This document shows, one piece after another, positions 8,574 through 43,789 of a stretch of DNA of 64,000 nt. Numbering within the stretch: position 1 is the stretch's first letter; every line of letters begins with the position of its first letter. Made by a program: the position numbers and the translations under genes. This DNA is from an uncultured Eubacteriales bacterium (GTDB lineage: Bacteria > Bacillota > Clostridia > Oscillospirales > JAKOTC01). The stretch is from assembly GCA_964587625.1 (NCBI GenBank), contig CAZPLU010000002.1, forward strand, positions 45,816-109,815, in the 5' to 3' direction. The notes below the pieces were generated by a model, which made no database searches, was not told where the DNA came from, and saw only the letters and a program-made list of their open reading frames with translations.

Positions 8574-8588
8574 AAAGGAAGGTCATAT

Positions 8589-10520: not shown

Positions 10521-10545
10521 AACCATTTCCTTGGTGCATTTTTAT

Positions 10546-15611: not shown

Positions 15612-15633
15612 AAAATATCGGGAGGAAATCACC

Positions 15634-28345: not shown

Positions 28346-28428
28346 GAACGGGGCGGCTGCGTTTTGCCGTTGTAAATTTTACCCCGAACCCGACAGCTTC
28401 CCGTCAACTAAAACCCGGAGGCGATTTG

Positions 28429-29349
28429 ATGAAACTGGAGCGGCTGGTCGAGATCATCACGATCCTGCTGAACAAAAAGACCGTGACAGCGGCGGAGCTG
28501 GCCGGGCGGTTCGGCGTCTCGGTGCGCACGATCTACCGCGACGTCGAAGCGCTCTCGGCGGCGGGCGTCCCGGTCTGCACCGCGCAGGGGCAAAACGGCG
28601 GCATCTCGGTCATCGAGGGGTATGCGGTCAACCGGGCGCTGCTCTCCGATTCCGAGCGCGACAATATTTTGTTCGCATTGCATTCTTTACAAGCGACCAA
28701 ATACCCGGAGGTCGACGCGGTGCTTGAAAAACTCGGCACGATTTTCAAGAGTAACGCTTCCGACTGGATCTCGGTCGATTTTTCGCCCTGGGGCTCGAAC
28801 CCGAACGCCTACCACAAATTCACCGACATCAAGACCGCGATTTTGCATTGCAACGTGATCGAAATAGACTACCTGAACGCCCAGAACCAAAAATCCACCC
28901 GCCTTGTCGAACCGCTCCGGCTGGATTTCAAATATCAGGCGTGGTATTTATGGGGCTGGTGCCGCAAACGCGAGGACTACCGGATGTTCCGCATCTCGCG
29001 CGTCAAGCGGGTGCTCGTCACCGGCGAGATTTTCGACCGCTTCCGCAAACGCGACCCGAAGCCGCAAAAGGGCGGCGACGGCGAGGCCGGGCATAAACCG
29101 AACGTCCACTGCGTTCTGCAATTTACCGAAGAGGCGCTGTACCGCCTCTATGACGACTACGACGACGACCGAATCCGCGACAACGGCGACGGAACTTATA
29201 CGGTCGAGGTCGAATTTCCCGAGGACGGCTGGGTCTACGGCTATATCCTGTCGTTCGGGACCGCCGTCAAGGTGCTCTCCCCGCCCCATTTGCAAAAGAT
29301 CATCAGGGAGAAAAGCGGGAAAATTTTCGAATATTATCAGGATATATGA
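28429..29349 (+). CDS. HTH-WYL transcriptional regulator (YafY/PafBC-like architecture), copy 2
   Basis: MKLERLVEIITILLNKKTVTAAELAGRFGVSVRTIYRDVEALSAAGVPV, then ...RLVEPLRLDFKYQAWYLWGWCRKREDYRMFRISRV (literal WYL). CGGAGG RBS. Confidence 0.85.
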   Translation: MKLERLVEIITILLNKKTVTAAELAGRFGVSVRTIYRDVEALSAAGVPVCTAQGQNGGISVIEGYAVNRALLSDSERDNILFALHSLQATKYPEVDAVLEKLGTIFKSNASDWISVDFSPWGSNPNAYHKFTDIKTAILHCNVIEIDYLNAQNQKSTRLVEPLRLDFKYQAWYLWGWCRKREDYRMFRISRVKRVLVTGEIFDRFRKRDPKPQKGGDGEAGHKPNVHCVLQFTEEALYRLYDDYDDDRIRDNGDGTYTVEVEFPEDGWVYGYILSFGTAVKVLSPPHLQKIIREKSGKIFEYYQDI

Positions 29350-29356
29350 TAAACTG

Positions 29357-29380
29357 TTGTCAGGTCTGGCGTGGTAATAT
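29357..29380 (+). promoter_or_regulatory. TTGTCRKGT-N9-TAnnnT element, site D
   Basis: TTGTCAGGT-ctggcgtgg-TAATAT. It starts 7 nt after the WYL-2 stop and lies 36 nt before ATG 29417. Confidence 0.55.
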
Positions 29381-29416
29381 ATATAAAACAATATTGAGAA
29401 CTAAGAGGTAACAGTC

Positions 29417-30172
29417 ATGGGTAAAATGTGGACACCGTGGTCGGGTTGTTATCCGGCAAGTGAAGGTTGTAAATACTGTTATTTTTATGGTGAACATTCA
29501 AAGCGTCATAGGCAAAATGATGTTATAAAAACAAATGATTTTTACAAACCGCTTGAAACAATATATATGCCGCGTAAAAAGATCACGAAACTAAAAATTG
29601 AAAGCAGCGATAAAAATGTAGGCGTTTGTTTCGATTCAGATTTCTTTATAGAAGAAGCTGATGAATGGCGGAACGAAGCGTGGAGTATTATGAAAAAACG
29701 CCCCGATTTGACCTTTACTTTTTTAACAAAAAGAATCGACCGTTTTCACGTTTCACTCCCGGACGACTGGGGTGATGGGTACGATAATGTCCGAATAGGC
29801 TGTACGGTTGAAAATCAAGAAATGGCTGATTATCGAATGCCGCTGTATATATCTTTTCCTATCAAGCATCGGTTTGTTATATGCAGTCCATTACTCGGAA
29901 AAATAGACTTTACACCGTATTTACACCGAGTGGAATCGGTAGGCGTGCATGGCGAATCCGGCAGGGACGCGCGGGAGTGCGATTTTGGTTGGGTTCTCGA
30001 TATTAGAGAACAGTGTATCAATGCGGGCATTTCATTTGGTTTTGGAGGAACCGGTACGTTATTTCGCCGGGACGGAGAACTTCGTAAAATAAATCCTTAT
30101 ATGCAAAAACGCATGGCTCGTGAAATGGATATAAACATAGATTCAATATATGGTATCAATGACGTAGATTAA
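29417..30172 (+). CDS. DUF5131 (phage Gp37/Gp68-like, three-Cys motif) protein
   Basis: N-terminus MWTPWSGCYPASEGCKYCY (CX6CX2C) is typical of the Gp37/Gp68 family. The gene is visibly AT-rich compared with its neighbours. Confidence 0.7.
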   Translation: MGKMWTPWSGCYPASEGCKYCYFYGEHSKRHRQNDVIKTNDFYKPLETIYMPRKKITKLKIESSDKNVGVCFDSDFFIEEADEWRNEAWSIMKKRPDLTFTFLTKRIDRFHVSLPDDWGDGYDNVRIGCTVENQEMADYRMPLYISFPIKHRFVICSPLLGKIDFTPYLHRVESVGVHGESGRDARECDFGWVLDIREQCINAGISFGFGGTGTLFRRDGELRKINPYMQKRMAREMDINIDSIYGINDVD

Positions 30173-30216
30173 CGCCCGTATTTCAATGGTTTTGGATAGT
30201 TGTACATTGTGAACCG

Positions 30217-30237
30217 TTGTCAGGTTTGGTGTAATAC
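30217..30237 (+). promoter_or_regulatory. TTGTCAGGT element, site E (short-spacer variant)
   Basis: TTGTCAGGT-ttggtg-TAATAC, 20 nt before ATG 30258. The spacer is 3 nt shorter than in the other copies. Confidence 0.35.
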
Positions 30238-30257
30238 CGCTTTTTGAGGTGATGATA

Positions 30258-31007
30258 ATGGAATATTCGCGCGAACAGATTTTAGAGATCATGAATCATA
30301 GCCGGTATCCTCTCTCAAACAAATATAATTCTGATTGGATACTCCAAAACGCAATGGGGTCACATTGCCTTTGGCTGCAAGAATCATTGACGCAAGTCAT
30401 GAACTTAAAGCCTGATATGCGCGTGTTAGACATGGGTTGCGGAAAGGCCATCAGTTCAATTTTTCTCGCCAAAGAATTTGATGTCAGGGTATGTGCTGCC
30501 GATTTGCGAATCAGTCCCACCGATAACTGGAAACGGATTTGTGAAATGGGCCTTGAGGACAAGGTATTTCCTATCCGTGCCGACGCGAACGACCTGCCTC
30601 TCGCGGATCATTATTTTGATGTGATGGTAAGCATCAATTCTTTGTTTTTATATGCGACGGGAGAGACGTTTCTCAAAGAACATTTGTTGAGAAATATCAA
30701 GCCGGGCGGTGAAATCGGGATTATCGTCCCAAGTTTTCTGCGTGAATATTCCGATAACTACCCGGAAAGTTACAAACCATATATTGACGACTTTGGAATA
30801 AAAGGTTGGCATACAGAAGGGTGGTGGAAGAATCATCTTGAAAAAACAGGGCTGGTTGATGTAATCTTAGCGGATCATTTGGCTGAAAATGAGGGGAAAG
30901 AACTGTATCATAAATCGGCGTATATGTGGAACGCGCATGAAGAACCGTTTAATGTTGTCGCATGGGAAGATATAACCTTCGCAAGAATAATAGCAAAAAG
31001 AAAGTGA
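30258..31007 (+). CDS. Class I SAM-dependent methyltransferase
   Basis: Motif I VLDMGCGKAISSIFLA, then post-I AADL... and DVMVSINSL. AT-rich gene. Confidence 0.8.
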   Translation: MEYSREQILEIMNHSRYPLSNKYNSDWILQNAMGSHCLWLQESLTQVMNLKPDMRVLDMGCGKAISSIFLAKEFDVRVCAADLRISPTDNWKRICEMGLEDKVFPIRADANDLPLADHYFDVMVSINSLFLYATGETFLKEHLLRNIKPGGEIGIIVPSFLREYSDNYPESYKPYIDDFGIKGWHTEGWWKNHLEKTGLVDVILADHLAENEGKELYHKSAYMWNAHEEPFNVVAWEDITFARIIAKRK

Positions 31008-31164
31008 ATTGCATCGCTGGCTAACCCATGCTTTTGAAGTTGTACATCGTGCATTATTTTGGAGGTATTGTTATGCAGGAATATACTTATCATGATTTTT
31101 TAAATATTATCATGTGCAAGACAAAACGGTCTTTGCAATTTAAAATGAAAGTGAGGAATTAAAA

Positions 31165-31749
31165 ATGGCAAATACATCACCATTCGACAGCATGATCTCA
31201 ACGCTTCCCCAAGCCCTCAAAGACGAGATCACGCAAACCGATCAATCCTTAAAATCCCTGCGCCCGTTGAAATTCAAGCGTACCGTTGACCCGAAGGCAA
31301 AAAAGATCACCTATGTCGCCTCCGACTACGGCGTTTCCTACATGTTTAAAGTCACCGATGATGTGTTGGCGCACAATTTTCAATGGTACATCGTTTATAA
31401 CGGCAAACCGGAGACCTGGCACCGCAGAGCCGATTATATGGAAGAAACGCTTGTCTATATCGCTAAAAACGATTTTCCGTTGGCTGAACGCATTTATAAC
31501 GCGTTAAGAACCTGCCCCGGTCTTGATAATTGCTACGGCCAAAGATGTCTCGCGAGAACGGTTTATGCGTTTAACGGGCAGAAAAAGCTGACCTGCCACG
31601 GAAAAGTTGAACCAGGTTTTAATCATGAGGGTTTTCGTGACGCAAGGGAATTCTTCCGTTATTTTAACGAACTTGTAAAAGAAAAAATAGCCGACGGAGA
31701 GCCGCCGCCGGAAAAAATCATTGTGTGCAAAACAAAACGTTCGCTGTAA
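31165..31749 (+). CDS. Hypothetical protein carrying a C-terminal Cys module shared with the genes at 35810 and 40919
   Basis: 194-aa ORF with a GAGGAA RBS. C-terminal LRTCPGLDNCYGQRCLARTVYAFNGQKKLTCHGKVEPGF. Confidence 0.45.
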   Translation: MANTSPFDSMISTLPQALKDEITQTDQSLKSLRPLKFKRTVDPKAKKITYVASDYGVSYMFKVTDDVLAHNFQWYIVYNGKPETWHRRADYMEETLVYIAKNDFPLAERIYNALRTCPGLDNCYGQRCLARTVYAFNGQKKLTCHGKVEPGFNHEGFRDAREFFRYFNELVKEKIADGEPPPEKIIVCKTKRSL

Positions 31750-31787
31750 TGTAAAATATCGAACATTTTTATTATGCTCTTTAAAAG

Positions 31788-31822
31788 CTGACAGTCAGTT
31801 GTCAGGTTTGGCCTGATAAAAT
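31788..31822 (+). promoter_or_regulatory. TTGTCRKGT-N9-TAnnnT element, site F, with an inverted repeat
   Basis: CTGACA-gtcagt-TGTCAG (31788-31805). TTGTCAGGT-ttggcctga-TAAAAT (31799-31822), 30 nt before ATG 31853. Confidence 0.55.
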
Positions 31823-31852
31823 GGTATCATCAATTCGGAAAGGGTTTTGCAA

Positions 31853-32293
31853 ATGGAACCGAAAATCATCAAAAAGAAGCGGATGACCCTCGCGGGGCTC
31901 TGGGGCGACGGCAGAATGACCGCCGCGCTTTGGCAGGATTTTGAGGAAAAAGCCGAAAAATCCGGCTTCACCGCAGCCGACAGCTGCGGCTGGGAGATCC
32001 GCACCGACGGGGAGCCCGGATATGATTGCTTTGTCGGCTTTGCGGCCGGCGAAAAGGCCCCGGAAGGTTTTCAAGCGGTCACGCTCCCCGCCTCGGAATA
32101 CACAGCGTTCGACGTGATGGTCGCCAACGGTTATGCCAGCGAAAACGCCAACATGAACGCGTGGCTCGAGACCAATAAAGAGAAATACACGCAAGCCGAA
32201 CTCGACGGGAAAAAGTTCGTGCTCGAGTGTTACAGCGAGCGTTTCAAGCAAGGCATCGTCGAAATTTGGATCCCGTTAAACAAATCCATTTGA
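31853..32293 (+). CDS. GyrI-like small-molecule-binding domain protein
   Basis: 146 aa. MEPKIIKKKRMTLAGLWG... ending ...VEIWIPL, the usual GyrI-like/SbmC pattern. Confidence 0.7.
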   Translation: MEPKIIKKKRMTLAGLWGDGRMTAALWQDFEEKAEKSGFTAADSCGWEIRTDGEPGYDCFVGFAAGEKAPEGFQAVTLPASEYTAFDVMVANGYASENANMNAWLETNKEKYTQAELDGKKFVLECYSERFKQGIVEIWIPLNKSI

Positions 32294-32429
32294 TCTTTTT
32301 TACGCGGATTTTTCACCGGAAATGATCGGAGGCTGATGGAAAATGCGGACGCCCCTTCGATTTAATTTAGCGCGCCGCGCGGACGAACTGAAAAGAATAG
32401 TTTTTGAGAATGACAAAGGAGGGTTCATT

Positions 32430-33119
32430 ATGCAACCGGTAAAGTTTTTTCAAAAGGGCGAAATTCTGTTGGGGGGATTTCATGTCGGCTCGGATATAGA
32501 CAAACGCTGGGATAAATTCGGACAGGAAGAAGAAAAAGCGAAACTGACCAACATCGTGGATGGAACCGGCTTTGAAAGACGGGTTTATTCGTCAGACGGG
32601 ATAAATATTTTTACGGGTGTTGAAGTGACCGATAAAAATATATTGCCCAGCTACGAACTGCTGGTCATCCCTCCCGCTCATTATGCGGTGTTTGAAGTAA
32701 ATTGCAATGCCGACATAGATCGGCAATTTTCAGAGATCGATAGCTGGCTTGCCGACAATAAGAATCAGTACGGTCAAGTGAAGTGGGAAAATGGCGATGC
32801 GGCTTATCGGATTATTTGGTCTGGGCGATATGAAAAAGAAATGATCTGTGAGATGTGGATTCCCGTTTTCAGGTTCTGCCAATCCTGCGCCATGCCCATG
32901 ACCAAGCCGGAGGACTTCGGCACAGAAGCCGACGGAAGCAAAAGCAGTGATTACTGTTGCCACTGTTATCAGAACGGAAAATTCACTTGTGGGAACACAC
33001 TCGAAGAAGCCGTTGAAGAAAACATACGGTTCTGGCGCAAAGATGGTGATAAGAGCGACGACGAAGCGCGGGCGCGTATCATGGGGGTGTTCCCGAAACT
33101 CAAGAGGTGGGTGAAATGA
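32430..33119 (+). CDS. GyrI-like domain protein with a C-terminal zinc-ribbon
   Basis: The GyrI-like half ends CEMWIPV. Then FCQSCAMPM...SSDYCCHCYQNGKF (putative zinc ribbon). AAAGGAGGG RBS. Confidence 0.7.
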   Translation: MQPVKFFQKGEILLGGFHVGSDIDKRWDKFGQEEEKAKLTNIVDGTGFERRVYSSDGINIFTGVEVTDKNILPSYELLVIPPAHYAVFEVNCNADIDRQFSEIDSWLADNKNQYGQVKWENGDAAYRIIWSGRYEKEMICEMWIPVFRFCQSCAMPMTKPEDFGTEADGSKSSDYCCHCYQNGKFTCGNTLEEAVEENIRFWRKDGDKSDDEARARIMGVFPKLKRWVK

Positions 33120-33559
33120 TCTTAACACCCTACCTCATCGTGAAGGATATGGAAAAATCCCTTGCGTTTTACACGGCGTTTTTCGGAGCGGAACCGGATA
33201 CCTACTGTCCGGGGCGATTCGTTAATTTTGATGCAGGAAATACGCGCCTGTCTTTATATAATCCTCTATACGATGATTCGCTTTTCCAAAGCGGCGCTGA
33301 TCTTAGCGAAAAATTCAATGAAGCGTACATAGCGGCGAAACAGATGCCTGTGCAATACGGAAACAATGTTGTCTTGAATATCGGCGTCGATGATTTGGCA
33401 AGCGAATATGAGCGGGTAAAAAAGCTGGGGATCGGTGAAATGTCCGAATTGGTCTATATCAATATCGCCGCGCCCTATTGGTGTTTTTGGCTGACCGACC
33501 CGGACGGAAATTGCATTGAAATTACAGGCGCATATACGCCGGAGAGGAAATCATCATGA
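33116..33559 (+). CDS. VOC/glyoxalase family protein
   Basis: MILTPYLIVKDMEKSLAFYTAFFGAEP... ending WLTDPDGNCIEI. Its ATG overlaps the previous stop (ATGA). Confidence 0.7.
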   Translation: MILTPYLIVKDMEKSLAFYTAFFGAEPDTYCPGRFVNFDAGNTRLSLYNPLYDDSLFQSGADLSEKFNEAYIAAKQMPVQYGNNVVLNIGVDDLASEYERVKKLGIGEMSELVYINIAAPYWCFWLTDPDGNCIEITGAYTPERKSS

Positions 33560-33965
33560 CCGAACTCGAAAAAGTAAGCCAAGAAACCATGCGTTTCATG
33601 CGGGGGAAATATGGGCGGAAAATATGCGGATTTCATTCTGCGATGGTGTGCGTACCCGTTACCTTGAATCCGGGGAAAAACGCCCGGATAAGCACCAGCT
33701 TCTGCTTGATTTCGACGATGACTCGGCTATCGTCTGCTCGGTTCAGATGTACGGCGGCAGCCCTAAAATCCACATTAAAGGATATGCGTGACGGCGGCGG
33801 GCGCGATACCGAAAAAGACCTGTACGGCAAGCCGGGCGGCTACCAAACAACCCTATCGAGCAAAACACTGGCATATCCCTGCCGCGCCTGTGGCGACGGA
33901 TTAAAGCGTGAGGCGTATTTGGGCGGTAATATCTATTCTGCCCTACCTGCCAGCCGTTGGAGAGG
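33556..33965 (+). pseudogene. Chimeric remnant: 5' end of a 34548-like gene fused to internally deleted, frameshifted Fpg/Nei-like fragments
   Basis: Bases 33571-33613 repeat 34572-34614 (43 nt, 1 mismatch). Frame-2 FCDGVRTRYL...PDKHQLLLDFDDDSAIVCSVQMYGG matches the middle of the Fpg/Nei paralogs. DMRDGGGRDTEKDLYGKPGGY...YPCRACGDGLKREAYLGGNIY matches their C-termini. The H2TH region is missing and a 1-nt deletion breaks the last CxxC. Confidence 0.7.
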
Positions 33966-33975
33966 AAGTAGTTTT

Positions 33976-34551
33976 ATGAAACATACCGTAACAACCGAAT
34001 TTTTTGCGGCAGGGGAATTTCTTGTCCTAAAAGGAATCGTAAAACTGTACGATTCGGAGGATTCATCTATCCCTGCGAATGACGAAGAAACATGGGATAT
34101 AATCAGACGGTGGTTGAACGACGGCTCTGTTGACCGTTTAAAAAAAGCGGCGGGTTCCGACGCCGTGTATATATTATTTTGCAACACCTGTGTGCGTAAC
34201 GACGCCGAAAAATGTTACGACTGCTCGTGCGACATAGCCTGCGAAAACTTTGGCGGCGCGAATGCTGCGGACGGATATGAAATTGTCCGGCTGCTGCCGT
34301 GTGAATACGCTGTGTTCGACTGTGATTTCAACGGCGAAATTACAATGCCGAAAGCGCACGAGAAACCGGACGCTATGTTTTGGGGCGAATGGCTGAAAAA
34401 GAATCCGTATGTTTCCGCGATTGACGATCCCGCGAACTGGTTAGGCAACGGATATGCTTCGATTGAGCTTTACACGCCTTTCGACCCGGACGCGAATAAA
34501 TTTAACGCGAAGATATGGTATCCGATTGTCAGAAAGGAAGAAAATCCATGA
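33976..34551 (+). CDS. GyrI-like/effector-binding-domain-like protein (tentative)
   Basis: 191 aa starting MKHTVTTEFFAAGEFLVLKG and ending ...IELYTPFD...AKIWYPI. Its own RBS (GGAGAGGAAG) lies inside the remnant's 3' end. Confidence 0.5.
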   Translation: MKHTVTTEFFAAGEFLVLKGIVKLYDSEDSSIPANDEETWDIIRRWLNDGSVDRLKKAAGSDAVYILFCNTCVRNDAEKCYDCSCDIACENFGGANAADGYEIVRLLPCEYAVFDCDFNGEITMPKAHEKPDAMFWGEWLKKNPYVSAIDDPANWLGNGYASIELYTPFDPDANKFNAKIWYPIVRKEENP

Positions 34552-35168
34552 GCGGCAAAACCGAAATGCAGAAAGTCAGCCAAGAAACCATGCGTTTCAT
34601 GCGGGGGAAATATGCGCTGGATGAGTTCGGCAACGGAAAAGACCAGCTTGCTTTTATCGACGGCGACGAAACCGTGTTGACCATTGCCATACGAAACGGT
34701 TATTATGATTTTGCAGTTGGGCAAGAGGTCATACGGGTTGCCGATCTCGACGCGCTCGAAAAAGCCAAAGAGATGATCACGGCCGCAAAAAACCCCAACC
34801 GCAAGCCGTTCCCGAAAACCCATATTCATTTTTCCAATTGCGGGCATCGCTGCGATCTTTGCGTTCATTACAAAGGCGAGACCCCGGTCGGCGCCGAGGA
34901 GCGTGATTTTGTTTTAGAGTGTCACAAAGCAGTATACGGTGATTTTGTTTGGGAGATGAATTGCGGCGGCTGTCATTTTCCCGATTGTACCGTCGAAAGC
35001 GTGCATTGTAAAAAAGGGAAAGGCATTGATCGGTGTTGGGCCTGCGAAAATTATTCAACATGCCTGAAAACGGCGGGCTGGCCGCCTGAAATCCATACGC
35101 GCGCCATTACCGCAGATCAAGTGACACGGGCGATACTGCCTTATGTGAAAGGGCAATACGGAAATTAA
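34548..35168 (+). CDS. Hypothetical protein with a C-terminal DUF3795-like Cys-rich domain
   Basis: ATG overlaps the previous stop (ATGA). C-terminal half CGHRCDLCVHY...CGGCHFPDC...CWACENYSTC. Confidence 0.5.
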   Translation: MSGKTEMQKVSQETMRFMRGKYALDEFGNGKDQLAFIDGDETVLTIAIRNGYYDFAVGQEVIRVADLDALEKAKEMITAAKNPNRKPFPKTHIHFSNCGHRCDLCVHYKGETPVGAEERDFVLECHKAVYGDFVWEMNCGGCHFPDCTVESVHCKKGKGIDRCWACENYSTCLKTAGWPPEIHTRAITADQVTRAILPYVKGQYGN

Positions 35169-35193
35169 CGATAAAAACAGGAGGCGCAAAAAG

Positions 35194-35817
35194 ATGAACG
35201 TCAAATCCTATCTAACCGAAATCGCCGTACAAAACGGCCTTGCCGCAGAATCCATGCAATTCCCCGACTGCGAGATCGACCCCGCGAAAATCAAGGTCAT
35301 GATGATCAACGAAGTGGTGCCGAAAAACCCGGACGACTGGTTTTACAGCGAAGCCCGCGACCCTGAAAACAGGAGAAACGCGCTCGGCTTGTTCGAGGGC
35401 GCGGGCGTACCCGTCAAAAGCATGCGCGACATCCTCGATTTGGGCATCTATATCACCGCCGCTTTAAAAACCCCGAAAGTAGGTTCTGCAGCCGATCCCG
35501 AAGCCATCCGGGCGCAGCTCCCGCTGCTGGAAGCGGAACTCGCGCTGTTCCCGAACCTCAGGGTCATCATGCTCATGGGCGACGTGGCGATAAAAATGGT
35601 CAACATGATTGCGAAGGCGCAAACGAAAAAGAACGCCTGCCAATCGGGCGCGGCGGGCAGACGCCGGCATTGGGCTAACGAAAAATTTTATTGGAACGGC
35701 ATCCGCGTTTTTCCGTCCTATATCATGACCGGCAAGAACCTTCTGATCGAGCCGTTCAAACGCGACACGATTACGGAGGACATCCGCAAAATGATGGAGG
35801 TGATCAAGAATGTCTGA
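35194..35817 (+). CDS. Uracil-DNA glycosylase superfamily protein with divergent motifs (tentative)
   Basis: 207 aa. KVMMINEVVP stands where UDG motif A (GxxPG / GINPG) lies, and VFPSYIMTG where motif B (HPS...) lies. Length and spacing are consistent with the UDG fold. Confidence 0.5.
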   Translation: MNVKSYLTEIAVQNGLAAESMQFPDCEIDPAKIKVMMINEVVPKNPDDWFYSEARDPENRRNALGLFEGAGVPVKSMRDILDLGIYITAALKTPKVGSAADPEAIRAQLPLLEAELALFPNLRVIMLMGDVAIKMVNMIAKAQTKKNACQSGAAGRRRHWANEKFYWNGIRVFPSYIMTGKNLLIEPFKRDTITEDIRKMMEVIKNV

Positions 35818-37093
35818 ACAAAATAAGCTTACCGCCGAAAAAGACGTGAAGAACGCCGGCCTGAGCGAAGACCTACAAAAAGCGCACCTCGGATTTTTGC
35901 GTTTTTTAAGAGATACCGAGTTCTCGGTCGAAGCGGAAGACGACGGGAACGGATGGAAAATCATCGATTTGAACGCGTGCGTCGGTCATATAAATTTTGC
36001 CAACGCGGGCATTTGGATTGACGCCTGCGATTTTGGCGGCGTCGGTTGGGCGGACGAGGCCTTGAAAGAAACCACATGGGCTCACGTGAGGGTGTGCGAG
36101 CATTTCAGTTCGAACGGAACGAAGTGCGGCTGCGGCAGGCAACCGGGTTTTGACGGAAACCTTTTCGGAAAGGAATATAAAAACCTCTGTTTTGCCCGTT
36201 TGGAGTTTATAAATCCCGACATTGAAACATTGGAAAGTATTAAAAAATTGATGTTATCGTATCGGCAAAACAAAAAAAATATTGATATGACCCCATATGA
36301 ACTGATGGTCAAGACCAACCACTATTTGATCAAGGGCGGCGAGCTGACCGGCGGGCAAAAAGAAAACATCGTCCGGCGGCTGCTGGCCGCGAAAAGCACG
36401 ACCGAACAAGCCGCTCGTTTTTATACCGGGGTGCGTTTCCCGGGAAATACCGACACGGGCGGACGCAAAATGTACCCGGAATTTTTCATCCCGCCTTACA
36501 ACGGCGGCGAAAAATACAGGACCGTTCTCGGACAAACGCCCAAGACCCATATCTTGTCGGCGAATCTTTATGAGCTTGAGATTTTACGGCTTTTACACTT
36601 GTTCACGCCCGACGATCCGGAGATCAAAAATATGACCGGAAAAACGCTTGCGCGGCTCAAAACCACCTGCTTCGGTTCTCAGGACGACGGCGTCGGCGAG
36701 TGCTTCGACGCCAACCTGGTCGTGCTCCGTTTTCTGGCTGCCGCCGCGCCGCGCGAGACGGACTGGATCAACGGCCGGATCGAAAATTATAACCGCCATG
36801 CGAACGATAAAAAGCGCCCGTGGTTCAGCCGGTGGTATTTTTGGCTCTACCTGTCGGAGCTGCCGTTTGAACTGGCTAAGCCGGAGGTCGATAAATACAA
36901 GCGCGAGATGGCACATTGGCTCGATTACAAGAGCTGCGTGATGAACAGCGAATCCGACCGGATCATCCACCCGACGCTGCTGTGCATCCTGCGCAACAAT
37001 CTGGCAAGGTACCCCGAATACGCGCACATCAAAGACCGACAGCCGTTTGTGAGCGAACGTGACGGGCGATTGCATTTTGATACGGAGAAGTGA
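35810..37093 (+). CDS. Hypothetical 427-aa protein (N-terminal shared Cys module plus unknown C-terminal domain)
   Basis: Its start overlaps the UDG-like stop by 8 nt (ATGTCTGA). Contains VRVCEHFSSNGTKCGCGRQPGFDGNLFGKEYKNLCFARLEFINP. No recognisable family. Confidence 0.5.
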   Translation: MSEQNKLTAEKDVKNAGLSEDLQKAHLGFLRFLRDTEFSVEAEDDGNGWKIIDLNACVGHINFANAGIWIDACDFGGVGWADEALKETTWAHVRVCEHFSSNGTKCGCGRQPGFDGNLFGKEYKNLCFARLEFINPDIETLESIKKLMLSYRQNKKNIDMTPYELMVKTNHYLIKGGELTGGQKENIVRRLLAAKSTTEQAARFYTGVRFPGNTDTGGRKMYPEFFIPPYNGGEKYRTVLGQTPKTHILSANLYELEILRLLHLFTPDDPEIKNMTGKTLARLKTTCFGSQDDGVGECFDANLVVLRFLAAAAPRETDWINGRIENYNRHANDKKRPWFSRWYFWLYLSELPFELAKPEVDKYKREMAHWLDYKSCVMNSESDRIIHPTLLCILRNNLARYPEYAHIKDRQPFVSERDGRLHFDTEK

Positions 37094-37096
37094 TGA

Positions 37097-37414
37097 ATGA
37101 AAACCGATTTTAGAAAAATCAATCCCTGCGGCGGGTGCTGTGATGATTGCGGTTTTAGGAAAAGCGGCGAGTGCAGGGGCTGCCGTGATTCAAAAGGCAA
37201 ATGCGTAAAATTATGGTCAAACGGCTGCCGGATTTATGAGTGCTGCGAAAAGCATAACGTCTATTTTTGCGGTGATTGCGACGAATTCCCCTGCGAATGG
37301 ATTGTCAATAAAATCGGCGAATGGGACAAGCAGGGAATCGAAAAATTAAAAATGCTCCGGGAAGATAAAAAACGTTCAGCCGGTTTAAATACGATAAAGA
37401 GGGCGTTTAAATGA
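37097..37414 (+). CDS. DUF3795-type cysteine-rich protein
   Basis: 105 aa. CGGCCDDCGF...CRGC...CRIYECC...CGDCDEFPC. Confidence 0.7.
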   Translation: MKTDFRKINPCGGCCDDCGFRKSGECRGCRDSKGKCVKLWSNGCRIYECCEKHNVYFCGDCDEFPCEWIVNKIGEWDKQGIEKLKMLREDKKRSAGLNTIKRAFK

Positions 37415-38136
37415 ACAAAACCATTTTGATCACGGGCAGCGCTTCGGGCATCGGTAAAGCCACGGCCAAATTATTCGCAAAGAATCAATACAACGTCTTT
37501 CTGATCGACATTGACGAACAAAATAACCAAAACGTCGCCGACGAGATCAACAACGGCGGAAACGCTGTTGCTTTTTCCGCGGATGTGCGGATTGAGGACG
37601 AGGTCTCGAATGCGGTGAAACGATGCATTGAAGTGTTCGGCGCGCTCGACTGCGCATTCAACAACGCCGGGATCGCCGTCAGCAAAAACACGGTCGACTG
37701 CACGGAAGACATTTGGGACCGCGTGATCGACACGAATTTAAAAGGGTACTGGCTGTGCATGAGGCATGAATTAAAGCAGATGCATACGCAGGGGCACGGA
37801 AACATTGTGAACACCGCGTCCATTAGCGGCCTGATCGCCCGCGCGGGGGACATGCCGTACAACGTCAGCAAATTCGGGATCGTGGGCCTGACGAAGACGG
37901 CGGCCCTTGAAAACGCCGGTAAGAACATCCGGGTGAACTGCATATGCCCCGGCGCGGTGCAGACGCCCTGGGTGAAAAAAGTGACCAAAGGGCTGAACGA
38001 ATTGCAGCCGATGGGGAGGATCGCCCAGCCGGAGGAAATCGCCGAAGCCGTGTTGTGGCTCTGCTCCGACCGCTCTGCTTTTATGACCGGCCACGCCCTC
38101 GTACTGGACGGCGGCCGGATCGCGGGCGAGTGGTGA
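37411..38136 (+). CDS. SDR-family oxidoreductase
   Basis: TGSASGIGKATA, NNAG and YNVSK motifs. Its ATG overlaps the previous stop. Confidence 0.9.
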   Translation: MNKTILITGSASGIGKATAKLFAKNQYNVFLIDIDEQNNQNVADEINNGGNAVAFSADVRIEDEVSNAVKRCIEVFGALDCAFNNAGIAVSKNTVDCTEDIWDRVIDTNLKGYWLCMRHELKQMHTQGHGNIVNTASISGLIARAGDMPYNVSKFGIVGLTKTAALENAGKNIRVNCICPGAVQTPWVKKVTKGLNELQPMGRIAQPEEIAEAVLWLCSDRSAFMTGHALVLDGGRIAGEW

Positions 38137-38156
38137 AAGTGAAAACGGAGGGTAAA

Positions 38157-39143
38157 ATGAACGAAAAAGTAATCGACTGGCTGCTTGAAGAAAAAGAACC
38201 GTCCATCCGTTACCGGACATTGACCGAATTGCTGGAATATCCGAGTGACTGCGAAGAAGTAATGTCGGCCAAGGAAAAAGCGTTCGATTGCGAAAACGTC
38301 CGGCGCATTTTTTCAAGGACGGACGAAAAGGGGATTTTCCCCCATAAGGCGGAGTATTACGGAAATTGGACGACGTTTTGCTATCTGACCGCGCTTGCCG
38401 AATTGGGGATCACGAAAGAAGATAAACGTGTTTGGCCGATCGTCGACTGGATTTTAACCCCCGGAGAGGATAAACTCGAACGCTTTGTGCAAAAAGAATT
38501 CGCCCCCGCTTATCTGCTTGAAGAGGACAATTTGGGCGGCTGCCGTCAAATCCGCTTTTTAAGCACGCTCGTCCGGCTCGGTTATTTAGATGACCCGCGC
38601 GTGAAACGGATGATTGACGTGTTCGCGGAAAAGGGCAGATTCGACGGCGGGTATTTGTGCAAATGGAAGAAAAGCAGGCACAAGGGACAGGAACCGAAGA
38701 GTTGTTATATCGCTGCCGTACCCGCTTTGTATTTATATTCCGTCTTGCCCGCTTGTTATAGACAGGGAAAAAATTACGACGCTCTGATCGATTATTTTAT
38801 AAGCAGAGAGATTATTTACAGCAAAACAGAACCCGGGAAAATCATATGCGACACGCGGCTCGGCTTTTTCAGCACCGGTTATACGCAGATCCTCACCGTC
38901 GCAAACGCAATGGGCAAATTGGGACTGGGTGATACCCCGCAGATGAGAAGCGTGTGGGAGATCATCCAAAATAAAACGGTTGACGGGAAATACATTCTCG
39001 AAACCGAAGAAACCAAAAGGACTATTTTGATGGACAGGGTCGGAAAACCAAACAAATGGATCACTTTTCAAGTCCTCCTCGCCCAAAAAGAAGCGGGGCG
39101 CTTGTCAAACGGAAATCCGCAAAAAAGAGTCATGAACGAGTGA
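38157..39143 (+). CDS. Hypothetical protein (possibly an alpha/alpha-toroid, prenyltransferase-like repeat protein)
   Basis: 328-aa ORF with a GGAGGG RBS. MNEKVIDWLLEEKEPSIRYRTLTELL.... The family call is a guess. Confidence 0.35.
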   Translation: MNEKVIDWLLEEKEPSIRYRTLTELLEYPSDCEEVMSAKEKAFDCENVRRIFSRTDEKGIFPHKAEYYGNWTTFCYLTALAELGITKEDKRVWPIVDWILTPGEDKLERFVQKEFAPAYLLEEDNLGGCRQIRFLSTLVRLGYLDDPRVKRMIDVFAEKGRFDGGYLCKWKKSRHKGQEPKSCYIAAVPALYLYSVLPACYRQGKNYDALIDYFISREIIYSKTEPGKIICDTRLGFFSTGYTQILTVANAMGKLGLGDTPQMRSVWEIIQNKTVDGKYILETEETKRTILMDRVGKPNKWITFQVLLAQKEAGRLSNGNPQKRVMNE

Positions 39144-39171
39144 TACAACTATTTGAAAGGATGAAGCCATC

Positions 39172-39996
39172 ATGATCGAACTGCCCGAGGCCCATGTGCT
39201 TGCAAACCAGCTCAACCAGGCGTTTTTGGGAAAAACCATTGTCAGCGCCGCGGCCAACACCTCACCGCACGGTTTCGCGTGGTATTCCGGCGACCCCGCG
39301 CTGTACAACCAAAAGCTCGCCGGAAGAAAAATCACGGGCACCGCTGCTTATGGCGGGCGTCCCGAAATGCGCGCCGACGGGATGATCGTCTCGTTTTTCG
39401 ACGGCGTGCGGGCGCGCCGCCTGTCCGCGCCGGAAGAACACCCCGACAAACACCAGCTTTTGCTCGAGTTTGACGACGGCTCCGCCCTCTGCTGCACCGT
39501 ACAGATGTACGGCGGCATGACGGCTTTTCCCGACGAACCCAACGACGATTTTTACTACAACGTCGGCAGGAAAAAACCGTCCCCTTTTTCGGAGGCGTTC
39601 GACAGGTCTTATTTTGACGGGCTGTTCGAGGGGGTTAAAAAGTCGCTCAGCGTCAAAGGGCTGCTTGCGACCGAGCAGCGTATCCCCGGCCTCGGCAACG
39701 GCGTCCTACACGATATTTTATTCAACGCCCGCATCCACCCCAAGCGCAAGGCGGAAACGCTGTCCGACAGCGAGCGGGATTCGCTGCACCGCGCCGTGGT
39801 ATCCACGCTGCGTGAAATGCGGGACGGCGGCGGGCGCGACACCGAACGCGATTTGTTCGGCAATCCGGGCGGCTACGGCACCATCCTTTCAAGCAAGACC
39901 GTCGCCTACCCCTGCCGCGTCTGCGGAAACGGGCTGAAGCGCGAGGCCTATATGGGCGGCAATATTTATTACTGTCCGACATGTCAAAAGGTATAA
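39172..39996 (+). CDS. Fpg/Nei-family DNA glycosylase-like protein with Ile in place of the catalytic Pro2, paralog 1
   Basis: MIELPEAHVL... (canonical MPELPEVE). H2TH ATEQRIPGLGNGVLHDILFNARIHPK. C-terminal zinc finger CRVC-N16-CPTC. Confidence 0.8.
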   Translation: MIELPEAHVLANQLNQAFLGKTIVSAAANTSPHGFAWYSGDPALYNQKLAGRKITGTAAYGGRPEMRADGMIVSFFDGVRARRLSAPEEHPDKHQLLLEFDDGSALCCTVQMYGGMTAFPDEPNDDFYYNVGRKKPSPFSEAFDRSYFDGLFEGVKKSLSVKGLLATEQRIPGLGNGVLHDILFNARIHPKRKAETLSDSERDSLHRAVVSTLREMRDGGGRDTERDLFGNPGGYGTILSSKTVAYPCRVCGNGLKREAYMGGNIYYCPTCQKV

Positions 39997-40056
39997 GGAT
40001 GTGTATAAATTCCCATTGCATGTTTTTCAACAACTATTTGAAAGGATGAAGTCATT

Positions 40057-40896
40057 ATGATCGAACTGCCCGAGGCCTATGTGCTCGCCGAGCAAATCAA
40101 CCGCACGCTCGCCGGAAAGACGATTCAAAACGCGACGGCCAACGCCTCGCCGCACAAATTCGCCTGGTACAGCGGCGACCCGGCCGTGTACCAGCAAAAA
40201 CTGGCCGGTAAGACGGTTACATCGGCAAATCCCGGAACCGGTTACACCTGCGGCGGCAACACCGAGATCGTCTGCGGCGACATGCTGCTTGTGATCTCGA
40301 CGCCGATCAAGTACCACGCGCCCGGCGAAAAGCTGCCGGCCAAGCACCAGCTCTGGCTGGAATTCGAGGACTTCTCGTCGATGACCTGCACCGTGCAGAT
40401 GTGGGGCGCGATGTTTTGCTATCCGCTCGGCGAAAACGGCTTGCCGAAGGGATATAAAGTCAACAAAACCCCGACGCCGCTCGAGAACGGATTCGATCGG
40501 ACATACTTTGAAGCGCTGCTCTCCGGCGCGCCGAAAAATTTGTCCGCCAAGGCCTTTTTGGCCACCGAGCAGCGTATCCCGGGCTTCGGCAACGGCGTTT
40601 TACAAGACATTTTATTCAACGCGAAAATCCACCCCAAGACCAAACTTGAAAAGCTGATCGACGCGGAAGTCGAAAATTTATATCAATCGGTCAAAAAGAC
40701 GCTGTTCGCCATGACCGCGCAGGGCGGGCGCGACACCGAAAAGGACCTGTTCGGCTGCCCGGGCGGCTACAAGACCATTTTGTCGGCGAATACCCTCAAT
40801 GACCCCTGCCCCGTCTGCGGCGGCAAAATCGTGCGCGAGGCGTATTTGGGCGGCAATATCTATTACTGCCCGACCTGCCAGCCGTGGAAAAAATAA
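40057..40896 (+). CDS. Fpg/Nei-family DNA glycosylase-like protein with Ile in place of the catalytic Pro2, paralog 2
   Basis: MIELPEAYVL.... H2TH ATEQRIPGFGNGVLQDILFNAKIHPK. Zinc finger CPVC-N16-CPTC. Confidence 0.8.
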   Translation: MIELPEAYVLAEQINRTLAGKTIQNATANASPHKFAWYSGDPAVYQQKLAGKTVTSANPGTGYTCGGNTEIVCGDMLLVISTPIKYHAPGEKLPAKHQLWLEFEDFSSMTCTVQMWGAMFCYPLGENGLPKGYKVNKTPTPLENGFDRTYFEALLSGAPKNLSAKAFLATEQRIPGFGNGVLQDILFNAKIHPKTKLEKLIDAEVENLYQSVKKTLFAMTAQGGRDTEKDLFGCPGGYKTILSANTLNDPCPVCGGKIVREAYLGGNIYYCPTCQPWKK

Positions 40897-40918
40897 CAGC
40901 GAAAGGAATTGTTTTAAT

Positions 40919-41434
40919 ATGATCGAACAATTGATTTCGGAGGAGCGTTTTGACTTTATCGCCCCGGAAAACAAACAATTCATCGTCGCGTTCACAAACG
41001 CGCTCGCGGACATTGGATACACCTTCAGAGGCGAAATCGAAAGGGGCTATTGCTGGGGCAGGTATATGCTGGTTTTTACAAAAGCCAACGTCAAATCTAA
41101 AAAGGTGGCCGCGCGCATCTATATCCGCGAAAAAGGGCTCGCGCTTCGGCTGTTTTTCAACGATGTCACCAAGCACGCGCCATATATTTCGCAGGCGCCC
41201 GACTTTATCAAAGAGGTTTTCATCGGATCGTACGCCACCTGCAAGCACTGCAAGGGAGAGCGGTGCAAATTCCAAAAGACCTATGACATCGGGGGCGTCC
41301 GTTATGAAAAATGCAACGGGCTGACTTTTGAATTCCAACGTCCCGGAATGAGCCGCCTGGACGATTATCTGGGGCTGTTTAAAGAATTTTACCCGGTTTC
41401 CCGTCGCTGCGTGATGAAGATCACAAGGCCCTGA
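40919..41434 (+). CDS. Hypothetical protein carrying the shared Cys module
   Basis: 171 aa with a GAAAGGAA RBS. ATCKHCKGERCKFQKTYDIGGVRYEKCNGLTFEFQRP. Confidence 0.45.
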   Translation: MIEQLISEERFDFIAPENKQFIVAFTNALADIGYTFRGEIERGYCWGRYMLVFTKANVKSKKVAARIYIREKGLALRLFFNDVTKHAPYISQAPDFIKEVFIGSYATCKHCKGERCKFQKTYDIGGVRYEKCNGLTFEFQRPGMSRLDDYLGLFKEFYPVSRRCVMKITRP

Positions 41435-41447
41435 CCGTGCGAACCGA

Positions 41448-42533
41448 TTATTGAAACAAATATTTTATCCCCCGCGCCATACGCCTTGCGGCGGACGCGC
41501 ATTTCCGAATCGGCCCCGCGATTTTAGCCGCCCGGAGCATTTGGCGTTCCTTTAACAGTGAAAACCCGTACAGCGGGCGGCGGAAAGCGGTCTCAAGCGG
41601 CTGTTCGATGATATGTTTGAAAAACGCCTCCAATTCCGAAAAAATACGCCCCGGAAGCTCGGGGTCGAGCAGCGCGGGCTGCGACAGCATTTCCAAATAG
41701 GCCTCGTCGTTGTTGTCGAGGTATTTGATCTTTTCAATCGCAGCGTCAAAATCCCCCCGCCCGCCGACATAGACGAACGCCTTCGGATTGAAAATTTTTA
41801 CCGCTTCCGGGCTGCCCCAATAGATCGGGACCGTGTGCGCGGCGAAGCCCTCGAGGATTTTTTCCGTGATATAACCGTCTACGCGGCAGTTTTCGAAGAC
41901 CATCGAAAATTTGCGCGCCGAGGCGAACGCGAGCTTGTCCTTCACGCCGTCTTTTTGCCCGATATTGTTGCGAAAGCGCCCGCCGGAATCGATTTTTTTA
42001 TATGCGCAGAGCCGGTCGAAAAACGCCTCGCGAATGGGGTCCGCCATCCGGTTGTTACTGACCACAAAGGAACAAAACCCGGTTTTTTTAACAAAATCCT
42101 CTTTGGCCGTCAGGTGTTTGTTTATGGCGAGCGCGACGTTCTTTTCGCAGTCACCGTGGTCGAAGCAGTACGGGTGCGGCAAATGGCGGTCGCCGTAAAG
42201 AAGCGGATAACAGGTGACGGCGTAATCGTACAGATCAAAATCCGGCCAGAGGTTTTCAAACGAGATAAAAATCCTGACCGCGTTCCTGTATTTTAACGCG
42301 CCGGAATTTAACAGGCCAAAGGACGACCCGAACACATAATCGGGGTCGCCGCCGAGCTCGACTTGATAATTCTTTTCAAGCAACCGGTAAAACAGCGTCT
42401 TTTGAATTCTTTCAAACGGCATCGCAAAATCGACGAACGCCGCTTTGATTTCGGGTTTTTCCACCGCCGCCTCCCATCGTTTTTGTGAAAATCGTTTTAA
42501 ACAAAAAAGGTCGTCCCGTTCATTTTGGGACAA
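41448..42533 (-). CDS. Glycosyltransferase family 10 (alpha-1,3/4-fucosyltransferase)
   Basis: FCSFVVSNNRMADPIREAFFDRL...GGRFRNNIG...FENCRVDGYITEKILEGFAAHTVPIYWGSPEAVKIFNPKAFVYV closely parallels Helicobacter FucT (...YVTEKILDAYFSHTIPIYWGSPSVAKDFNPKSFVNV, recalled from memory). Confidence 0.85.
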   Translation of the reverse strand: MSQNERDDLFCLKRFSQKRWEAAVEKPEIKAAFVDFAMPFERIQKTLFYRLLEKNYQVELGGDPDYVFGSSFGLLNSGALKYRNAVRIFISFENLWPDFDLYDYAVTCYPLLYGDRHLPHPYCFDHGDCEKNVALAINKHLTAKEDFVKKTGFCSFVVSNNRMADPIREAFFDRLCAYKKIDSGGRFRNNIGQKDGVKDKLAFASARKFSMVFENCRVDGYITEKILEGFAAHTVPIYWGSPEAVKIFNPKAFVYVGGRGDFDAAIEKIKYLDNNDEAYLEMLSQPALLDPELPGRIFSELEAFFKHIIEQPLETAFRRPLYGFSLLKERQMLRAAKIAGPIRKCASAARRMARGIKYLFQ

Positions 42534-42608
42534 CCTTTTTATTTTATGCAGTTTTACAGTAAACCATTTACCGTTTACCGTTTATTCAATGTTTGATTTT
42601 AGGCGATT

Positions 42609-43619
42609 TCACGGATTTGATCCGCGAAAGCGTTTTTGCGCCTCTTCGATCATCGCGCGGGCGTTTTCATAGGGCACGTCGGCTTGGATGCTCTGCGCGG
42701 GCGCAAGGATATACCCCCCGCCCTTTCCCAATATCCCGACCACCTGAGAAATTTCGTCCCTGACTTCGTCCGGCGTGCCGTAAGGCAGCGTCCGCTGGGT
42801 GCTGACGCCGCCCCAGAACGTCAGCATTTCGCCGTGCTCCCGCTTGATTTTGGCCAGATCCATGCACTCGGGCTGCACGGGGTTCAGCACGTCGACGCCC
42901 ATTGTGACCAGGTCGCCCATGATGGCCTCGACGTTGCCGCACGAATGCACCCAGACGTCCTTTCCGCCCCCGTGGATCAAGTCGTATTCGCGCCGCTCGC
43001 CCGGGGCGATCATTTCGTGCCAGACGTCGGGCGACATCAGCAGCGATTTTTGGGAGCCCCAGTCGCTGCCGAGCAGTATTCCGTCGATCTCGGGGATGTT
43101 GACGATATTTTCAAGCATGACGATGTTTTTGCGGATGATCATATCCAGCAGCGATTTGGCGTATTCCGGCTCTCCGGCCATATCGGCGAGGAAATTTTCA
43201 ATCCCGCGCGCGAAATACGCCTTTTCAAAATGGCTGCCCCAGACCGTGACCAGCATATAGCAGCCCGTCGCCGCTTTGACGGCCTTGATCTTGTCGGCGA
43301 ATCCCGTATAGCTGCCGTACCCCATGGTCTTGGGCAAAAAATCCGGCGCGTCATAGTCCGAATAGGACTTGGGCAGGTCGTGCCAGTTCCACCACGGGCA
43401 GCCGAACGCGAACACGCTGTTGCCGATGCCGAGGCGGACGGCCTCGTCCAAATCGAGCCGCCCGGCCTCGTATTCGCTTTTCACCCATCCGGTGACAAAA
43501 TCGGCAATCAGCCGCTCCCCGTATGCCTCGTATGCGTCCCTCGCGAAGGTGATGGCATACGGCAGCGACGCGCAGGGTTTATGCGCGATGGCGGTCTTGA
43601 CGATGTCGTGTTTTTCCAT
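42609..43619 (-). CDS. Uroporphyrinogen decarboxylase (URO-D) family protein, MtaA/CmuA-like
   Basis: 337 aa. ...DVWVHSCGNVEAIMGDLVTMGVDVLNPVQPECMD.... GGAGGC RBS precedes ATG 43619. Confidence 0.7.
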   Translation of the reverse strand: MEKHDIVKTAIAHKPCASLPYAITFARDAYEAYGERLIADFVTGWVKSEYEAGRLDLDEAVRLGIGNSVFAFGCPWWNWHDLPKSYSDYDAPDFLPKTMGYGSYTGFADKIKAVKAATGCYMLVTVWGSHFEKAYFARGIENFLADMAGEPEYAKSLLDMIIRKNIVMLENIVNIPEIDGILLGSDWGSQKSLLMSPDVWHEMIAPGERREYDLIHGGGKDVWVHSCGNVEAIMGDLVTMGVDVLNPVQPECMDLAKIKREHGEMLTFWGGVSTQRTLPYGTPDEVRDEISQVVGILGKGGGYILAPAQSIQADVPYENARAMIEEAQKRFRGSNP

Positions 43620-43789
43620 TCCGAAAAATGCCTCCGATGCGACGAATTCTGATTTTATTTTATAACATTTCCGCCGAATCCGCAACCCCGAAAACATCAG
43701 CCCTCGGAACTTGACAAATCCGTTCCGACATAGTATCATCAAGCCGCGGACTTAAAAACGCAAAAAAACGCATGGCGAAGGATGTTTTT

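Follow-up and report, generated by a model that had tools for sequence, protein, structure and literature searches.

Here we describe two adjacent genes encoding Fpg/Nei-like proteins that lack the N-terminal proline, located in a 64,000-nucleotide stretch of contig CAZPLU010000002.1 (assembly GCA_964587625.1) from an uncultured Eubacteriales bacterium, hereafter the window. The two proteins belong to a clade that keeps the fold and the catalytic glutamate under strong selection, yet is without the nucleophile and half of the residues that clamp DNA. We read the pair as two selected members of old Fpg/Nei subfamilies that would carry out Glu3-dependent, Schiff-base-independent nucleic-acid chemistry or ligand recognition, and assign this reading a probability of roughly 0.45. 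The clade is large, conserved, and apparently unstudied, lacking both a curated model and a solved structure. That thousands of conserved sequences should be without the nucleophile would surprise base-excision-repair specialists; the function, once known, would either add a new reaction to a classic repair fold or establish a new class of damage-binding proteins, and would correct a widespread annotation error. Residue numbers for canonical positions are those of Bst MutM (Geobacillus), and labels such as L048 and L055 denote homologous loci elsewhere.

The gene pair and its translation starts

The features of the gene pair are listed below.

39172..39996 (including the stop codon), + strand: gene 1 (subfamily A), encoding a proline-less Fpg/Nei-like protein of 274 aa (MIELPEAH...), identified from its open reading frame (ORF), Pfam, an AlphaFold2 (AF2) model, and orthologues
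40057..40896, + strand: gene 2 (subfamily B), encoding a proline-less Fpg/Nei-like protein of 279 aa (MIELPEAY...), identified from its ORF, an AF2 model, and orthologues
39145..39204, + strand: ribosome-binding region and opening 33 nt of the coding sequence of gene 1, near-identical to 40030-40089 at gene 2
39175..39180, + strand: Ile2 and Glu3 codons of gene 1 (gene 2 equivalent, 40060-40065)
39652..39750, + strand: H2TH motif, gene 1 residues 161-193 (K162, G173-x-G175-N176, P190; gene 2 equivalent, 40546-40644)
39829..39852, + strand: clade-specific loop GGRDTERD, gene 1 residues 220-227 (gene 2 equivalent, 40723-40746)
39913..39984, + strand: zinc finger CxxC-X16-CxxC, gene 1 C248-x2-C251-x16-C268-x2-C271 (gene 2 equivalent, 40807-40878, C251...C274)

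Both ORFs, defined as beginning at the first ATG, GTG, or TTG after a stop, open with ATG ATC GAA CTG CCC GAG and encode MIELPEA, so that the start reported for both genes in the preliminary description is seen in ORFs and codons alike. The two proteins are 55% identical, gene 2 being distinguished from gene 1 by a GTGYTCGGN insertion and by STP in place of FDG. Glu3 and Glu6 are present in both, and the H2TH stretch of the two reads ATEQRIPG[LF]GNGVL[HQ]DILFNA[RK]IHPK; this stretch, Glu3, and the CxxC-N16-CxxC zinc finger had been described as kept, and all three are seen in both sequences. Gly263 of gene 1 occupies the position of the DNA-binding Arg264 of Fpg.

An alternative upstream start had been named as one way in which the N-terminus could differ, and no in-frame ATG, GTG, or TTG lies upstream of either gene 1 or gene 2. 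An AAGGA Shine-Dalgarno sequence is found approximately 10 nt 5' of the ATG in both genes, and at 24 orthologous loci of other organisms a GGAGG-type Shine-Dalgarno sequence precedes an ATG or GTG that opens M-[IL]-E-[LI]-P-E. A 22-nt upstream stretch, ACAACTATTTGAAAGGATGAAG, is exact at both genes (2 matches versus 0 expected by chance). Given that the 5' ends are near-identical though the remainder of the two genes shares only ~70% DNA identity, the shared 5' segment probably reflects gene conversion or a constraint on translation initiation.

Family and fold assignment

With the Pfam H2TH model, gene 1 scores 46.3 bits and gene 2 33.9 bits, just under the cut-off of 34.7, while Pfam Fapy_DNA_glyco gives 26.4 bits for gene 1, above its cut-off, and a score just below for gene 2. 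The NCBIfam fpg/nei equivalog models align end to end with both proteins at ~80 bits against cut-offs of 203-423: NF002211, the best of them, yields 83.4 and 78.0 bits (cut-off 212), TIGR00577 yields 79 and 72 bits (cut-off 203), and the nei model yields 47 and 39 bits (cut-off 252), all below threshold, and neither protein reaches a curated equivalog threshold (NCBIfam fpg, nei, Nei2). Sequence searches of the PDB returned only classical Fpg/MutM/Nei chains (E = 1e-17 with the single sequence, 6e-26 with a profile), with no solved structure from the clade among the matches.

The AF2 models of both proteins have a predicted local distance difference test score (pLDDT) of 92.9 and a predicted template modelling score (pTM) of 0.89. 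When the gene 1 model was compared with the PDB using Foldseek, the top 40 matches were all MutM/Fpg, with E values down to 3e-20 and template modelling (TM) scores of 0.76-0.84 (about 0.82) at sequence identities of 20-25%. Both proteins possess the beta-sandwich, H2TH, and beta-hairpin zinc finger that define the superfamily. Based on the Pfam, NCBIfam, and PDB matches, the AF2 models, and the Foldseek superposition, the predicted Fpg-like fold is beyond doubt and far beyond chance; the proteins are not, however, ordinary Fpg or Nei. Public records label clade members as 'endonuclease VIII' or 'formamidopyrimidine-DNA glycosylase' (e.g. WP_429148074.1 of Anaerotaenia torta), labels that are very probably wrong as a functional statement.

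Residues kept, lost, and gained

Residue conservation was assessed in an alignment of 87 sequences, comprising 85 diverse representatives of the clade (<= 50% identity) and the two window proteins, with Bst MutM and L. lactis Fpg as references. Glu3 is kept in 87/87 and Glu6 in 86/87, Lys160 is kept in 84 sequences and the H2TH Asn174 in 80, and the four zinc-finger cysteines are kept across the clade. The position of the Phe114 wedge is aromatic in 82/87 (Y 49, W 33). The Pro2 nucleophile, or a Val of the NEIL3 type, is absent from both window proteins, which begin Met-Ile, and proline is found at residue 2 in 0/87 sequences (I 48, L 24, M 4, Y 3, V 3), in agreement with the earlier statement that the canonical nucleophile is missing. 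Given the absence of Pro2, the Pro-Schiff-base glycosylase/lyase reaction is impossible. Methionine aminopeptidase leaves Met in place before Ile or Leu, and by this established specificity the mature N-terminus of proteins with Ile or Leu at residue 2 would be Met1, as had been proposed for the two window proteins with their Ile2.

Beyond the nucleophile, most of the residues with which Fpg holds DNA and lesion are replaced. Lys60 (E. coli K56, Nei2 K51) corresponds to Gly62 in both window proteins and is variable across the clade (G 36, S 10, K 10, A 7, N 7), in an alignment that is uncertain here by +/-1 residue but has no conserved Lys at either adjoining position. His74 is replaced by G or S, Met77 by a gap or variable residues, Arg112 by Gln in 42/87 (Arg persists in only 9/87), and the zinc-finger Arg264 (E. 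coli R258) by Gly in 79/87. Other positions have acquired residues of their own: Ser220 has become Arg in 80/87 (Arg222 here) and Arg223 has become Glu in 75/87 (Glu225 here), these two, together with Gln13, His33, and Pro91, being near-invariant and clade-specific. A GGRDTExD motif replaces the GGST(V/I)R start of the 8-oxoguanine (8-oxoG)-capping loop of Fpg/MutM, and the pocket loop of the clade is more conserved than that of true Fpg. The loss of Lys60, His74, Met77, Arg112, and Arg264, in combination with the rebuilt loop, weakens the idea, also put forward in the preliminary description, that canonical lesion binding was simply retained.

Size and distribution of the clade

When 1.84 billion cluster representatives (50% identity) were searched exhaustively with a profile, 299 proteins reached E <= 1e-30, which we define as the clade, and a further ~2,800 proteins had E values of 1e-30 to 1e-10, presumably classical Fpg. 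Counted as clusters at 90% identity, the relatives exceed 7,000, and a scan with one genome per species placed them in at least 587 species-level genomes. Carriers are mainly Oscillospiraceae and other anaerobic Bacillota, with further members in Chloroflexota, Spirochaetota (Breznakiella homolactica, complete genome), Coriobacteriia, Propionibacteriaceae, and Bacteroidota; cultured carriers include Paenibacillus macerans, Robinsoniella peoriensis, Acetanaerobacterium elongatum, and Anaerotaenia torta (WP_429148074.1). Members are also found on archaeal metagenome-assembled genomes, of which the Methanosarcinales contig L048 is truly archaeal. On L048, the clade member (8001-8822) converges on a Hef-type helicase/ERCC4/HhH nuclease gene (8945-11485, - strand), and FEN1 is encoded at 14929-15954.

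A tabulation of residue 2 across homologues, which had been suggested as a check, gave Ile or Leu in most clade members and never Pro. Of the 120 clusters (built at 90% identity) that match gene 1 best, nearly all begin M-I-E or M-L-E, and the 150 best representatives have I (52), L (28), M, V, Y, F, R, or T at residue 2, and never P. Ile2 is a clade trait inherited from an ancestor, not a local accident. The literature holds that the N-terminal proline is absolutely conserved in Fpg/MutM/Nei, and regards the superfamily as dedicated to oxidative damage and absent from archaea (PMC4075521, PMC8307549). A proline-less clade with archaeal members contradicts these statements on proline conservation and archaeal absence, and full-text literature searches returned no description of proline-less Fpg/Nei homologues in bacteria.

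Selection, paralogy, and a decayed third copy

Ratios of nonsynonymous to synonymous substitution rates (dN/dS; Nei-Gojobori, versus orthologues) are 0.07-0.11 for gene 1 and 0.11-0.16 for gene 2. Orthologues of gene 1 are 86-98% identical, and those of gene 2 are up to 89% identical, with 120 listed clusters at >= 64%. The pair is, to judge from these comparisons, two old subfamilies, each under purifying selection. A recent tandem duplication, as the term tandem paralogs had implied, is ruled out, each copy being closer to its own orthologues elsewhere (up to 89-98% identity) than to its neighbour. Among 80 species-level loci, side-by-side copies occur only in this window; syntenic relatives have a single copy in the same place, adjoining the same GT10 fucosyltransferase and URO-D genes, of A type at L081 and of B type at L091 and L093.

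A third, decayed copy lies upstream of the pair.

33606..33965, + strand: decayed third Fpg-like copy (tblastn versus gene 1: 78% identity over 59 aa, 63% over 51 aa)

This copy is 5'-truncated and has lost its H2TH region, and residues 65-115 are read in a different frame from residues 208-266; within the last CxxC, a 1-nt frameshift joins the frame to a downstream Cass2-like gene, the real start of which is at 33976. The same remnant is present in L093 (1741-2157) as a 138-aa ORF that is less decayed by one frameshift. Based on the low dN/dS of the intact genes, with a truly decaying copy as contrast, the former are clearly maintained, while the latter is evidently dead. The earlier argument for selection over decay thus stands, given the dN/dS of 0.07-0.16, the invariance of Glu3 (87/87), and the contrast with the dead copy, but its premise of two parallel substitutions does not, since Ile2 is ancestral.

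Genomic context

The gene pair is found near the end of an array of small genes, the main features of which, apart from the third copy, are as follows.

28039-41434, + strand: co-directional array of ~17 small genes with short gaps, 13 kb, with the gene pair near its end
35194-35817, + strand: 207-aa UDG-like protein (Pfam UDG 23.9 bits, under the cut-off of 24.3)
35810-37093, + strand: 427-aa conserved protein without family
38157..39143, + strand: 328-aa protein without a family assignment, ending 28 nt upstream of gene 1, recurrent as a neighbour though not universal
41448-43742, - strand: right-hand border, GT10 fucosyltransferase and URO-D-like gene, kept in relatives

The array opens with a WYL/HTH (PafC-like) regulator and continues with DUF5131, a methyltransferase, Zn_ribbon_2+Cass2, a glyoxalase, a Cass2-like gene, DUF3795, the UDG-like gene, an unknown, a second DUF3795, an SDR, an unknown, the two Fpg-like genes, and a final unknown. 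The 436-aa ORF at its start (28039-29349) is overextended 5', the WYL regulator being ~300 aa with a domain match from residue 131; the 399-aa ORF at 37944-39143 is likewise overextended and overlaps the SDR gene, its real start being 38157 according to the gene calls of L085. Cargo varies between close relatives (L081, L091, L093), and the array looks like a hypervariable accessory island of stress/xenobiotic-type genes. A scan of positions 27500-42000 for promoters and terminators gave counts near shuffled expectation.

Homologues of the 328-aa protein adjoin Fpg-like genes, on their immediate upstream side, in L055, L081, and L093, and L091 has an unannotated ORF of similar size at the same position, probably a further homologue. 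Neither the 328-aa nor the 427-aa protein has a Pfam, NCBIfam, or PADLOC match. Homologues of the UDG-like protein occur within 8 kb of Fpg-like genes at 5-6 of 79 loci, and the 207-aa protein may be a second atypical glycosylase-fold protein in the island.

Across the clade, the commonest families are GyrI-like (7/231) and DinB_2 (4/231) among immediate neighbours, and WYL (7/79), UDG-like (5/79), and Zn_ribbon_2 (5/79) when counted by locus; GNAT and glyoxalase are also recurrent, no neighbour family exceeds ~9% of loci, and many clade members stand alone among housekeeping genes. The context hints faintly at a stress, xenobiotic, or DNA-damage setting, the hint being faint because no neighbour is conserved across the clade.

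Several candidate leads were discarded. Domain fusions offered no functional hint, the longer members being frameshifted, mis-called, or furnished with a low-complexity hinge insert. A phage or defence role was rejected, as neither protein matches a PADLOC defence profile and no viral relatives were found in 2.9 million viral contigs. An integron cassette, an idea suggested by the Cass2 neighbours, was rejected given that the intergenic gaps of 28-60 nt are too short for attC.

Proposed function and alternative explanations

In summary, the clade keeps the whole fold (N-terminal beta-sandwich, H2TH, and zinc finger), Glu3 and Glu6, the H2TH Asn and Lys, and the wedge aromatic. The proline has been replaced by Met-Ile or Met-Leu, with Met1 probably retained, and also lost are the Lys, His, and zinc-finger Arg that clamp phosphates around the lesion, as well as the Met and Arg with which Fpg occupies the space of the flipped base; the lesion-pocket loop of Fpg has been swapped for the strictly conserved GGRDTExD. 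In the mechanism that we propose, the old active-site cleft would still be used, with Glu3 as the catalytic acid, and would bind or process some nucleic-acid ligand that is not an oxidised base clamped in kinked duplex DNA. Most likely this would be hydrolytic, monofunctional base excision or adduct recognition on single-stranded, distorted, or alkylated DNA, performed by stand-alone proteins that in Oscillospiraceae appear to be carried by a variable island of small stress/xenobiotic-type genes. By analogy, Nei2 may serve as a precedent for proline-independent glycosylase chemistry in the Fpg/Nei fold: the P2A variant of M. smegmatis Nei2 keeps its glycosylase activity towards 5-hydroxyuracil in single-stranded DNA (ssDNA), E3A and K51A variants lose it, and crosslink repair by Nei2 in vivo needs no AP-lyase activity (PMC11323726).

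A number of observations weigh against this proposal. The Lys that Nei2 requires is mostly absent here (K 10/87), leaving the analogy incomplete. The clade has a median isoelectric point (pI) of 6.7 and a net charge of -1, compared to a pI of 9.2 and a charge of +8 for Fpg, and given this low charge and the three phosphate-clamping residues that are gone, even binding to DNA is uncertain. Placement of the new conserved residues along the old active-site cleft is predicted from alignment to Fpg structures only. Finally, no conserved operon partner was found by all-versus-all ORF clustering of 80 loci, by phmmer with 23 neighbour queries, or by comparison of 231 immediate neighbours with Pfam, and these neighbour analyses showed no AP endonuclease, ligase, or polymerase as a partner.

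A broader version of the proposal, which we offer only tentatively, is that the clade represents an unrecognised H2TH class that has spread by horizontal transfer through anaerobic bacteria into archaea, and that would use Schiff-base-independent chemistry via Glu3 and a new Arg/Glu/Asp pocket for non-oxidative genome protection, not 8-oxoG repair. Alkylated or bulky adducts might, for example, be excised hydrolytically, or non-duplex DNA processed.

It is unlikely, although by no means far-fetched, that the proteins are non-catalytic nucleic-acid binders that sense damaged or structured DNA or RNA, shield it, or act as recruiters for it, comparable to NFACT-N in tRNA/ribosome binding. Such a role is consistent with the combined loss of the nucleophile, Lys60, and Arg264 and with genes that stand alone, outside any repair operon, and Burroughs and Aravind have argued that a same-fold domain without the proline cannot form a Schiff base (PMC4075521). 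A mere binder, however, is difficult to reconcile with a Glu3 that is invariant at <= 50% identity, or with a pocket loop whose conservation, higher than in true Fpg, would sooner be expected of an active site or of a pocket for a specific ligand, and the low net charge speaks against simple DNA coating.

We regard as improbable a bifunctional glycosylase/lyase that has merely changed its nucleophile to the alpha-amine of Met1 or of a processed residue 2, comparable to Val2 of NEIL3 or Thr2 of T4 endonuclease V. While the M-x-E-L-P-E register is exactly that of Fpg, a few members have a Val or Thr2 that methionine aminopeptidase could expose, and the proline is dispensable in NEIL3 (PMC11323726), Met1 stays on before Ile or Leu, placing the amine one residue further out than in known enzymes, and the residues that position the lesion sugar (Lys60, His74, and Arg264) are gone together with the void fillers, which argues against canonical geometry.

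A function unrelated to nucleic acids, such as the binding or transformation of a small-molecule toxin, is a long shot. The near-neutral pI, a pocket rebuilt with charged residues, and an island containing small-molecule-binding families (GyrI-like, glyoxalase, and DUF3795 nearby) would fit such a role, but the elements that contact DNA (the GxGN motif, K160, the wedge aromatic, and the full zinc finger) are strongly conserved, the link to the island is limited to some Oscillospiraceae loci, and the archaeal member lies beside Hef and near FEN1.

Decay or mis-annotation, in which the genes would be pseudogenes like the true pseudogene copy nearby or would have a wrong start masking Pro2, is refuted by the lack of an upstream in-frame start, the conservation of Shine-Dalgarno sequence and start at 24 loci, the dN/dS of 0.07-0.16, the hundreds of full-length homologues with the same N-terminus, and the confident AF2 models.

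Comparison with known systems

By sequence and fold, the nearest relatives of the clade are true Fpg enzymes, not NFACT. The clade proteins share with Fpg/MutM (Geobacillus 1R2Y, L. lactis 1TDZ, E. coli 1K82) the three-part fold (TM 0.80-0.84), the length, the x-E-L-P-E register, the P-x-P inter-domain hinge, the GxGN with its Asn, Lys160, the CxxC-X16-CxxC, and an aromatic residue at Phe114. They differ from them in having only 20-25% identity, in the replacement of Pro2, Lys60, His74, Met77, Arg112, and Arg264, in a loop that starts GGRDTE, in being near-neutral and not basic, and in being carried mainly by strict anaerobes and also by archaea.

Like the clade, NEIL3 and mycobacterial Nei2 have an Fpg/Nei fold that departs from the textbook scheme. 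NEIL3 has Val2, is missing two void-filling residues, and shows a preference for ssDNA or crosslinks. For Nei2, which works on ssDNA, the glycosylase step is independent of Pro2 (PMC11323726). Both, however, expose a small residue 2 and keep the catalytic Lys and the zinc-finger Arg, whereas the clade lacks the latter two and would retain Met.

NFACT-N (RqcH/NEMF/Tae2) consists of an Fpg-like beta-sandwich and an H2TH-type module with no conserved proline and no Schiff base (PMC4075521). In contrast to the stand-alone clade proteins of 274-279 aa, NFACT proteins are large, contain several domains (NFACT-R, coiled coil), and have no Fpg zinc finger; the Pfam NFACT_N model gives E = 0.15 and 11 bits for gene 2 against a cut-off of 31, and no match for gene 1.

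Fpg2 of M. tuberculosis (Rv0944) is an inactive Fpg paralogue without the N-terminal proline, an N-terminally truncated remnant known only from some actinobacteria. The clade proteins, unlike Fpg2, are full length, widespread, and under strong purifying selection. Considering the N-terminal proline and the DNA-clamping residues that it has lost, the clade presumably works differently from every characterised relative.

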